Positions 17,532-18,439 of a DNA stretch of 20,000 nucleotides are shown piece by piece. Source of the stretch: an uncultured virus (IMG/VR IMGVR_UViG_3300044491_001439) (lineage: Duplodnaviria; Heunggongvirae; Uroviricota; Caudoviricetes; Kyanoviridae); the IMG/VR virus record IMGVR_UViG_3300044491_001439. One strand, 5' to 3'. The notes beneath the pieces are model-generated. The model was not told the DNA's origin. It saw nothing but the letters and a program-made list of their open reading frames with translations, and ran no database searches. The translations under genes and the position numbers were made by a program. Position 1 is the stretch's first letter. Each line of letters starts with the position of its first letter.

Positions 17532-17556
17532 AAAAAAGAGGGGTAACAACCCCTCT
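17532..17556 (-). terminator. Rho-independent terminator after the DUF4278-like gene
   Basis: Minus strand AGAGGGG-TTGTTA-CCCCTCT running into a T tract. Confidence 0.85.
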
Positions 17557-17573
17557 GATTATTTACAAGTAGA

Positions 17574-17741
17574 TCACTTACTGTATGTACGTCCACGATA
17601 ACAGAATGTACCGTGTGTTTCTTTCGATTCGACACATCGTGTATCATACTCAACACCACGATATGTGGCGTGACTGATCTGTGCGTCGTGAAGTGCAGAT
17701 GCCTTGTTGATCTGCTTCTTGATCATTTGCAGTGTGTTCAT
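17574..17741 (-). CDS. DUF4278-like small protein (55 aa, two YRG motifs)
   Basis: MNTLQMIKKQINKASALHDAQISHATYRGVEY...FCYRGRTYSK with an AGGAG Shine-Dalgarno. YRG..Y motifs are characteristic of DUF4278, a family known to follow glutamine riboswitches. Confidence 0.75.
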   Translation of the reverse strand: MNTLQMIKKQINKASALHDAQISHATYRGVEYDTRCVESKETHGTFCYRGRTYSK

Positions 17742-17787
17742 GAGTCTTCTCCTGAAGTTGGGGTGAGGTTTTAAGTCTCCCGTTCCT

Positions 17788-17955
17788 TCAGTCGTTTGCG
17801 TCCCAGTACCACTCACATTCTGGTGATGAGTCCTTAAGGGTCTCGACCAACTCTATCTTCAATAGAGAAGATAGATTCGCATTGTTCTCAATCTTCAGCA
17901 TAATAGCATCAGTTTGAGTACATGAGAGTGTTGTATAGAATAATAGTTCTAGCAT
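17788..17955 (-). CDS. 55-aa ORF embedded in the second aptamer
   Basis: Below the ORF-track cutoff. Reads MLELLFYTTLSCTQTDAIMLKIENNANLSSLLKIELVETLKDSSPECEWYWDAND*, with GGAG about 10 nt upstream. The start overlaps the P2 5' strand and the stop overlaps CGACU-GAA. Confidence 0.7.
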   Translation of the reverse strand: MLELLFYTTLSCTQTDAIMLKIENNANLSSLLKIELVETLKDSSPECEWYWDAND

Positions 17956-17999
17956 GGGATGAACGCTCCGTTCCGCGACTTACTTGCGTCCCCTAGATG

Positions 18000-18007
18000 T
18001 ATAAATA
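18000..18007 (+). promoter_or_regulatory. Exact T4 late promoter TATAAATA for the HNH gene
   Basis: TATAAATA 11 nt upstream of ATG 18019, inside the imperfect inverted repeat CTAGATGTA...TACTTCTAG (17993-18014). Confidence 0.8.
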
Positions 18008-18018
18008 CTTCTAGTTAT

Positions 18019-18399
18019 ATGAGACAGATGGACATTAGACCAATACCTTCTTATCCTGGTTACTTTGCCGATTCCGATGGTAACATCTGGAGTGAGCGTT
18101 GGGGTGAGAGAAAGAAACTCAAACCACACGATAATGGTAGAGGTAGGTTTGGAATTAATATCTGTTACAATCAGAAGAGAACTTATATAAAAGTTCACAG
18201 ATTAGTAGCAGAAGCATTCCACGGATTTGCTGGTGATGAAGTGCATCATATTGATGGCGATCCATCTAATAACAAACCCGATAATCTAAATCCTTTATCT
18301 AAAGAGGATCATATTGATATGCATCACAATAAAGAAGAAAGGATTAGAAAAGCCATCCGACTTTTACAATCAGAAGGTTATACGATCATTGGGGGATGA
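18019..18399 (+). mobile_element. NUMOD4-HNH homing endonuclease gene (I-HmuI-like, 126 aa), antisense to its neighbours
   Basis: NUMOD4-like RPIPSYPGYFADSDGNIWS and HNH motif VHRLVAEAF...VHHIDGDPSNNKPDNL. It is the only credible plus-strand gene in 13-20 kb. Confidence 0.88.
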
Positions 18400-18410
18400 A
18401 CGATGGTATT

Positions 18411-18439
18411 ATTATACCATAACTATTTAGATGTGTCAA
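18411..18439 (-). promoter_or_regulatory. Consensus sigma70 promoter TTGACA-N17-TATAAT, with a CTAAATA late-like motif in the spacer
   Basis: -35 at 18439-18434, -10 at 18416-18411; predicted +1 near 18404, the first base of AUCGUUCA. Confidence 0.9.

Follow-up and report, generated by a model that had tools for sequence, protein, structure and literature searches.

A conserved small-protein gene of T4-like cyanophages within the predicted glutamine-riboswitch leader of a DUF4278 gene

The DNA considered here is a 20,000-nt stretch from an uncultured virus of the Kyanoviridae (IMG/VR record IMGVR_UViG_3300044491_001439), referred to at its full length as the window. All coordinates are those of the window, and features lie on the minus strand unless otherwise stated. 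An open reading frame (ORF) encoding 55 amino acids (aa) at 17955..17788, here called ORF55, belongs to a single minus-strand transcription unit that consists of a promoter, a riboswitch with ORF55, a DUF4278-like gene and a terminator. Comparison with related phages indicates that ORF55 is a genuine gene for a small protein in T4-like cyanophages, housed inside the glutamine-riboswitch leader of the DUF4278 (IF17-like) gene. The promoter is of the sigma-70 type (TTGACA-17-TATAAT, 18411..18439), with 12 of 12 consensus matches and a TG before the -10 element. It places the transcript start a few bases 5' of AUCGUUC, and equivalent promoters are found at the matching place in relatives. The regulated gene (17574..17741, 55 aa) matches phrog_545 (2.7e-36) as well as Pfam DUF4278, the latter with an E-value of 4.1e-5 and 24.3 bits, 1 bit below the curated cutoff of 25.3. 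The unit ends in an intrinsic terminator (17537..17556) with an 8-bp stem containing five GC pairs and followed by a T run.

Read along the minus strand, AUCGUUCAUCCCC starts at about 18403, and its CGUUC(1) (18398..18402) corresponds to the 5' strand of the outer P1 helix in the Rfam alignments of compact relatives. Then follows the first hairpin, P2 (17989..18396), where UCCCC (18396-18392) is matched by GGGGA (17993-17989) across a loop expanded by about 400 nt that holds an antisense HNH homing-endonuclease gene (18028..18399, plus strand). After this insert the sequence reads GGGGACGCAAGUAAGUCGCGGAACGG-AG-CGUUCAUCCC-AUG. The conserved junction strand CGCAAGUA (17981..17988) fits CG.AAGUA of the glnA RNA consensus in the Rfam alignments, and its CGC corresponds to C17-G18-C19 of the glutamine-II structure as described (PMC6698751). 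Next come the 5' strand of P3, AGUCG (17976..17980, partner 17794-17790), hairpin Ha (17961..17973), made up of GAACG (17973-17969), the loop GAG and CGUUC (17965-17961), and hairpin Hb (17801..17959), which has ORF55 as its loop and pairs UCCCA (17959-17955) with UGGGA (17805-17801). ORF55 itself (17788..17955, 55 aa and TGA) has an ATG that adjoins CGUUCAUCCC, and it ends as TGG GAC GCA AAC GAC TGA (17805-17788), running on into AGGAACGG (to 17780). The 3' strand of P3, CGACU (17790..17794), draws on three codons: it takes the third base of the Asn codon, all of the closing Asp codon and the U with which the stop begins. The 5' strand of a helix that masks the Shine-Dalgarno (SD) region of the DUF4278 gene, the anti-SD helix, is CUGAAG (17786..17791) and includes the ORF55 stop UGA (17790-17788), while the 3' strand of the outer P1, GAACG(2) with a trailing G at 17780 (17780..17785), fits GGAACGG of the glutamine-riboswitch core. 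A spacer leads from there to CUUCAGGAG, in the region of the anti-SD 3' strand CUUCAG (17757-17752), which overlaps the DUF4278 SD AGGAG (17753-17749; feature 17749..17757).

The loci surveyed came from 334 sources (24 from GenBank, 309 from IMG/VR, and the window), which gave 234 unique loci and 237 unique ORF55 coding sequences. A tblastn search with the 55 residues found 310 phage records, all with at least 80% query cover and 31-91% identity, and nearly all of them Synechococcus or Prochlorococcus myoviruses. An intact homologue of 52-56 aa, from ATG to stop, is present in 332 of the 334 sources, the two misses being cut at contig ends, and the differences in length are of whole codons only. 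ORF55 matches phrog_504 over its full length (E 5.8e-25, residues 1-55 on profile positions 1-53 of 53), and homologues in S-MbCM7, Syn1, Syn33, S-SSM7 and S-BM1 are labeled hypothetical protein "T4-GC 430". Stops interrupt both other sense frames in all 332 loci, and the three antisense frames in 325-332 of them.

The pattern of substitution is that of a coding sequence. Within the interior of the gene the proportion of synonymous differences (pS) is 0.647 and that of nonsynonymous differences (pN) 0.294 over 4000 random pairs; the median ratio of nonsynonymous to synonymous rates (dN/dS) is 0.25 over the 2675 pairs with finite dS above 0.05, dS being saturated in 1323 pairs. The residues C13, E37, C50, P48 and Y8 are invariant in the unique coding sequences, yet use all their synonymous codons: Cys is TGT in 166 and TGC in 71, Glu is GAA in 124 and GAG in 113, and Pro uses four codons. 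C13 and C50 are alignment columns that correspond to C12 and C47 of the window protein. Eight columns are invariant among 63 diverse ORF55 sequences, and AlphaFold2, given these 63 sequences, predicts two helices (residues 12-24 and 30-43) with a predicted local distance difference test score (pLDDT) of 80.5. A profile search collected 902 clusters at 90% identity, all hypothetical and none with a Pfam domain. ORF55 itself has no match in Pfam, a Foldseek search of its model against the PDB gave nothing at E<=0.001, and the ESM Atlas returned unnamed clusters only. A scan of 185,579 prokaryote genomes, one per species, with a single peptide pattern found no relative.

An earlier note on this DNA, made from the sequence alone, had drawn attention to two cysteines in the peptide and had proposed tBLASTn and dN/dS across cyanophages as a check on the frame. 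Both cysteines, C12 and C47, turned out to be invariant in 237 of 237 unique coding sequences, and the frame is conserved by either measure. The note had also considered a leader peptide as an option. A leader peptide would have a sequence that is free apart from its regulatory codons, which is not what is seen in ORF55. A family of 52-56 aa that forms about 900 clusters at 90% identity and is under purifying selection is rather a protein family, and the option was given up.

The assignment of the surrounding RNA is based on its core strands. Rfam gave no hit at the gathering threshold in the whole window, and no glutamine-riboswitch hit at E<=10 between 17400 and 18700, because two large insertions, one of 400 nt and one of 150 nt, interrupt the element. 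All the core strands are found in the window: the CGUUC...GAACG helix, the hairpin directly 3' of CGUUCA, the CGC strand, and GGAACGG with its trailing G. They are invariant or nearly so in the 234 unique loci and align to the consensus in relatives, and the outer P1 3' strand, GAACG(2) with its G, is invariant in 232 of the 234. The first hairpin varies in relatives with its pairing kept (UCCC/GGGA, ACCC/GGGU, GCCC/GGGC, CCUC/GAGG), and has loops of 3-30 nt there. The element also occupies the leader of a DUF4278 gene and has an alternative helix that masks the ribosome-binding site (RBS).

Relatives without the insertions are common. In 99 viral stretches recovered by a pattern search, a loop of 3-19 nt with no ORF connects CGUUCAUCCC to GGGACGCA.ACGA.U.AAGGAACGG; this loop is UUCG in 40 of the 80 ORF-less loci fetched. 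These stretches have the same first unit on the 5' side, and CUU[C/U]AGGAG and a DUF4278 gene on the 3' side. Contigs from RNA libraries show the ORF-less junction as well, 17804 being joined to 17956 with four letters between, and in a contig of run X3 that is without the HNH insert 17992 is joined to 18393 with 19 other letters between. The contigs cover the conserved halves heavily, but they represent many relatives, possibly as DNA, and have no bearing on the transcription or the transcript ends of the window locus. Of 16 compact loci, nine reach the gathering score of the glutamine-I riboswitch family RF01739 (at least 35 bits), and eight of these align as one unit that spans both halves. 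The other seven have 29.8-34.5 bits with RF01739 and rows of 26.0 to 35.8 bits with RF01704, the highest (35.8 bits against a gathering score of 33) being at locus L403; the first unit of S-MbCM7 scores 30.4 bits. The seed alignment first published for glnA RNAs (Weinberg 2010, supplementary file 5) has compact copies of both unit types as entries of their own.

The start, the stop and the last codons of ORF55 double as riboswitch RNA. Its SD, GGAG (17969-17966), lies within the closing pair and loop of Ha, and UCCC (17959-17956) stands directly 5' of the ATG (17955-17953), the A of UCCCA in Hb being the A of the AUG, while the opposite strand, UGGGA, sits within the Trp and Asp codons. This arrangement is shared by 24 of 25 diverse sources and by 232 of the 234 unique loci, the exceptions being L086 (S-CAM1) and L055. 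The last five codons are nearly without synonymous variation, with a pS of 0.039 for this tail vs 0.647 for the interior: the codon is always GAC for the first Asp (236 of 236) and GCA for Ala (235 of 235), and nearly always AAC for Asn (184 of 185) and GAC for the final Asp (229 of 236), whereas interior Asp codons are GAT (115 of 119 at one position and 195 of 197 at another). In S-CAM1 the ORF ends early in a diverged tail (...WYWSDHE), and an untranslated, intact UGGGACGCAAACGACUGAAGGAACGG follows 11 nt further 3', indicating that the RNA element is maintained for its own sake.

The ribosome-binding site behaves differently from the stop. The linker after GGAACG starts with GAG, and so completes GGAG, in 227 of 236 unique loci with ORF55 vs 0 of 59 without it; the loci are phylogenetically non-independent, though the contrast is absolute. 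The 59 ORF-less loci have GAU, GGUA, GAUUU or a similar linker. It appears from this distribution that the SD of ORF55 arrived with the gene.

The earlier note had described the RBS, start and stop of ORF55 as parts of a second aptamer. The anatomy it gave was found to be right, with GGAG in the GAACG-GAG-CGUUC junction, the AUG abutting the UCCC strand and W-D-A-N-D-stop as riboswitch 3' sequence, which is frozen at its synonymous sites. What stands is the overlap with conserved riboswitch RNA; the helices that would make up a separate second aptamer show no covariation. Since RBS, start, last codons and stop all overlap conserved riboswitch RNA, folding and translation would compete for the same nucleotides, as the note had supposed.

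The stop codon is in addition part of the expression platform. CU[G/A]AAG (17791-17786, containing the UGA) pairs with CUU[C/U]AG (17757-17752), which overlaps the DUF4278 SD, and covariation is seen between the second base of the stop and the base opposite: TAA stands opposite U in 65 unique loci and opposite C in 0, while TGA stands opposite C in 129 and opposite U in 29. Of the 234 unique loci, 8 have no SD by the pattern used, and 3 are atypical. In the sequence set A2 this pair is GC in 36, AU in 13 and GU in 11, and ViennaRNA gives the anti-SD helix a mean probability of 0.92 over 225 unique loci. Its first two bases are common to P3 and its last four to GAAGG of the riboswitch core, and the two folds are therefore mutually exclusive. 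The U[G/A]A and its covariation are also seen in ORF-less relatives, and ORF55 thus seems to borrow a pre-existing RNA feature as its stop. A stop codon inside a covarying helix that masks the region before the DUF4278 SD would provide a concrete route for translational coupling, as judged from the anatomy.

Two further features are found in this part of the leader. GUUCAU of the inner CGUUCAU (17964-17959) is complementary to AUGAAC, codons 1-2 of the DUF4278 gene (17741-17736), and the window's minimum-free-energy fold pairs them with each other. Relatives with other DUF4278 starts do not have this pairing, and it may be incidental. In L084, L089, L102, L104, L355 and others, an extra conserved hairpin (ACGGAUCC-stem-GAGAAGGUUAA) lies between the riboswitch and the anti-SD strand, in the spacer between GGAACGG and the DUF4278 SD; the window does not have it.

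When it comes to the fold of the riboswitch, the comparative data favor a nested arrangement in which the outer P1, the first hairpin and a long-range P3 enclose Ha and Hb. The whole unit of about 86-90 nt scores 38-46 bits with RF01739 (8 of 9 hits), vs 30-35 bits for single units, and in the whole-unit alignment the strands of P1 are CGUUC from unit one and GAACG from unit two, the first hairpin takes the place of P2 and AGU...ACU that of P3. Three helices, Ha, P3 and the anti-SD helix, covary in the sequences compared. Ha closes with G:C in 227 unique loci and with C:G in 6, with no mixed cases, and the outer strands stay CGUUC and GAACG when it changes. In P3, AGUCG (17980-17976) and CGACU (17794-17790) are complementary across ORF55. 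At the second pair, about 227 unique loci have G:C, 6 have A:U (in four sequence contexts), one has G:U and none has A:C; the 3' half of this compensation is the rare synonymous change of GAC to GAU in the last Asp codon. Counted over the nested pairs in set A4 (35 sequences), 99.2% of the cells are paired, vs 24-47% in slid controls, and 0 of 500 shuffles reach the covariation score. For the anti-SD helix together with Ha in A2, 97.0% of the cells are paired and again 0 of 500 shuffles reach the score; slid controls over both counts lie at 24-54%. Hb is paired in 100% of the cells in A4 and has a stem of 4-8 bp in 233 unique loci, and compact relatives join its strands by UUCG-type loops. It shows no change on both sides, and shuffling of partners by duplex energy is marginal (6 of 300 shuffles as good).

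Taken as a whole, the explanation that ORF55 is a real gene in a nested glutamine riboswitch controlling DUF4278, with translation and folding mutually exclusive, is on balance probable. The regulatory logic is read from the anatomy and may be pictured as follows. By analogy with the published glutamine riboswitches, glutamine would stabilize the outer P1 and P3 and free the DUF4278 SD, acting as an ON switch; without glutamine the anti-SD helix CUGAAG/CUUCAG would form and mask the DUF4278 start region. A ribosome on ORF55 would have to open Hb and P3, and at the last codons it would cover the 3' strand of P3, GAAGG and the 3' strand of P1, so that translation of ORF55 and sensing of the ligand would exclude each other on a given mRNA. 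On terminating at the UGA, the ribosome would melt the anti-SD helix and allow initiation at DUF4278, which might then be switched on either by glutamine or by translation of ORF55. A more far-reaching idea is put forward tentatively and is more doubtful than probable. In it the ligand-binding fold has to close over a gene under translation, glutamine sensing is gated by the ribosomes that travel along ORF55 and bypassed by those that terminate, and the leader would integrate translational activity and glutamine level in setting the amounts of the ORF55 protein and of the IF17-like protein during infection; the conserved riboswitch hairpins would double as homing sites for mobile genes.

The nested fold has to be weighed against two tandem aptamers, CGUUC(1)...GGAACGG(1) and CGUUC(2)-ORF55-GGAACGG(2), each binding glutamine, with Ha and the anti-SD helix as ligand-free alternatives. 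Each unit does have every core element (CGUUCA, hairpin, CGC, GGAACGG), the seed alignment mentioned above lists compact copies of each type separately, and single units reach 30-35 bits with RF01739. The ends of the second aptamer also pair when the ORF55 segment is folded alone (mean probabilities 0.71 and 0.68, 90 loci). However, in 60 sequences chosen for diversity of junction type, the helices specific to the second aptamer are paired in only 88.1% of the cells and show no covariation; five cells are broken, and in 5 of the 60 sequences it is the top P1 pair. The double change in Ha breaks one pair in each of the two aptamers and yet keeps the hairpin, the covarying P3 has no role in a purely tandem fold, and the nested unit scores higher in Rfam. 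Purely tandem aptamers are therefore judged unlikely, and the tandem picture of the earlier note is largely replaced by the predicted nested fold, as its leader peptide is by a conserved nested gene. Several observations nevertheless weigh against the nested fold or limit its support. The inner strands (GGAACGG, CGUUCAUCCC, GGGACGCAAAC) are conserved far beyond the needs of simple hairpins, which fits tandem aptamers, and tandem pairing may exist as an alternative state. The outer P1 and Hb are invariant and hence give no covariation information; each compensatory change is seen in 6 unique loci from few lineages, in counts that are not tree-based; and since variants were deliberately included in A2 and A4, significance is overstated by the shuffle statistics. 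ViennaRNA with flanks gives CGUUC(2)/GAACG(2), the long-range helix of a tandem second aptamer, a probability of about 0.001 and leaves CGUUC(1) outside most of the folded stretches, a calculation that is uninformative for a ligand-stabilized state. The ligand-bound fold would pair two G of the ORF55 SD, which makes the effect of glutamine on ORF55 ambiguous, and the 400-nt insert in the first hairpin of this phage may weaken or cripple the sensor. The locus L022 has ORF55 between CGUUCAUCCC and the 3' half with no first unit upstream, a natural single-unit form that could help to separate the tandem from the nested fold.

Alternatively, ORF55 might be passive cargo, that is, a gene that landed in a loop tolerant of insertions, borrowed its start context and stop, and shares nothing but transcription with the riboswitch. 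Three unrelated cargoes are indeed found in the hairpin loops (ORF55, the phrog_6471 family described below and the HNH gene), compact forms free of cargo are common, and the stop was evidently borrowed, as U[G/A]A and its covariation pre-exist in ORF-less relatives. On the other hand, ORF55 homologues were met nowhere else, 232 of 234 unique loci having them in this position, GGAG occurs in the hairpin loop only together with the gene, and compensatory pairing in P3 is kept in the lineages that bear ORF55. As the stop codon physically overlaps both P3 and the anti-SD helix, independence is mechanically unlikely, and we regard passive cargo as possible but rather doubtful. It would be far more surprising if ORF55 were untranslated, its open frame and conserved residues being by-products of RNA structure in a riboswitch arm. 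RNA constraint on the first and last codons is certain, and the segment folds slightly more stably than shuffles (z -2.16), but residues are invariant amid abundant synonymous change in the interior, length changes only by whole codons, the other frames are closed, the SD is present only with the ORF and the predicted two-helix fold is confident. An untranslated ORF55 is accordingly very improbable.

The predicted element resembles several known systems without being identical to any of them. Glutamine riboswitches before DUF4278/IF17 genes are described as translational ON switches, in which the ligand-stabilized CGUUC/GAACG pairing competes with a helix that hides the RBS (PMC6212724, PMC6698751). 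With the glutamine-I riboswitch (glnA RNA, RF01739) the window element has in common the CGUUC/GAACG P1, the hairpin after CGUUCA, the strands CG.AAGUA and GAAGGAACG, the position in a DUF4278 leader and an alternative helix masking the RBS, as outlined in the proposal for gifB (PMC6212724), and its compact relatives reach the Rfam threshold. It differs in that P3 is long-range and encloses a second copy of core strands and a 55-aa gene, in that the first hairpin carries an antisense HNH gene, and in having no Rfam hit in the window. As for the glutamine-II riboswitch (Downstream-peptide motif, RF01704), CGC and GGAACGG fit C17-G18-C19 and G35-G41 of the structure as described (PMC6698751). 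That motif is likewise associated with short ORFs and DUF4278 genes, and RF01704 hits here are of 24-36 bits, from sub-threshold to threshold; its short ORF lies 3' of the aptamer, however, whereas ORF55 lies inside. Tandem glnA RNAs have been noted (Weinberg 2010) and also consist of two consecutive units with the same core before one gene, while covariation here favors units that are cross-paired, with an ORF embedded.

In leader-peptide attenuation or translational coupling of the trp, erm or coat-replicase type, translation of an upstream ORF remodels the helix that hides the next RBS. ORF55 would act in a similar way on the helix hiding the DUF4278 RBS, but it encodes a conserved protein rather than a short sensor peptide, and the RNA to be remodeled is a predicted metabolite-binding aptamer. 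Group I introns and other structured RNAs carry ORFs, often for homing endonucleases, in peripheral loops. As in group I introns, the RNA fold here closes around a coding insert in a terminal loop, and the HNH gene appears to be mobile; unlike them, the element does not splice, and the start and stop nucleotides of ORF55 are shared with RNA stems. SgrS/SgrT and RNAIII/hld are dual-function RNAs that combine regulatory structure with the mRNA of a small protein, and they act in trans. The same combination in one region is seen here, although the predicted riboswitch is cis-acting and codons and aptamer nucleotides are shared.

Riboswitch aptamers are usually treated as compact non-coding domains. 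A widespread phage version that keeps the sensing core while one arm encodes a conserved protein would be a natural system for the competition between ribosome and ligand on one RNA. Single nucleotides in it would serve as codon, aptamer stem and SD-masking helix, and the frozen synonymous sites illustrate cleanly how constraints on RNA and on protein can overlap. The insertions would also explain why scans with covariance models miss most glutamine riboswitches of cyanophages: a 2017 survey listed only two (PMC5473149), vs the 310 phage records with ORF55, and the flanking riboswitch halves were found in 24 of the 24 ORF55 records inspected. In the parts of two cyanophage genome papers that deal with them, glnA RNAs figure only as Rfam hits (PMC9964418, PMC9602691). 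Full-text searches of the literature turned up no account of an ORF within a glutamine riboswitch. The overlap suggests a link between translation and nitrogen sensing, and it ties an abundant, uncharacterized phage small protein to an IF17-like putative regulator of glutamine synthetase, which bears on how cyanophages manipulate the nitrogen metabolism of the host.

The first hairpin houses other genes. The HNH gene of the window matches Pfam HNH_3 (6.9e-11) and phrog_59 (6e-26), and the UCA in CGUUCAUCC is complementary to its TGA stop (18397-18399). At the corresponding site, locus L161 has a copy of this gene with 95 of 100 aa identical, while in L159, a close relative of L161, ORF55 is only about half identical to that of the window. 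The near-identity of the HNH gene despite such divergence of ORF55 suggests homing into conserved riboswitch sequence. A second family of small proteins, of 65-66 aa with two invariant cysteines (phrog_6471), is nested in the first hairpin in 111 instances, counted by locus and strand: L084, L086, L089, L092, L097, L098, L101 and about 100 IMG/VR loci (e.g., L106:215-409). Its ATG lies directly 3' of CGUUCAUCU, its stop codon falls within the stem's 3' strand, and a CAU before the stop is the covarying partner of the AUG (UCUUAUG/CAUAAGA vs UCUCAUG/CAUGAGA). Homology between ORF55 and this family was considered and rejected, the hhalign probability of 4.9% being not significant, though the two cysteines of each do align.

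The sequence TATAAATA, which resembles a T4-type late promoter, is found just upstream of the HNH start in the window (18000-18007, plus strand). The same sequence lies upstream of the riboswitch unit in L088, L090, L092-L095 and L102-L104, where other relatives have a promoter of the sigma-70 type, and the unit may thus be expressed at different times in different phages. In L055, ORF55 leads into a 3' half that is partly duplicated; next come a hairpin with TATAAATA in it and another ACGUUCAUCCC, in place of the usual anti-SD strand and DUF4278 gene. In yet another relative, the glutamine-riboswitch unit is preceded at a distance of about 80 nt by a manA RNA (L346:85-274; RF01745, 173 bits).

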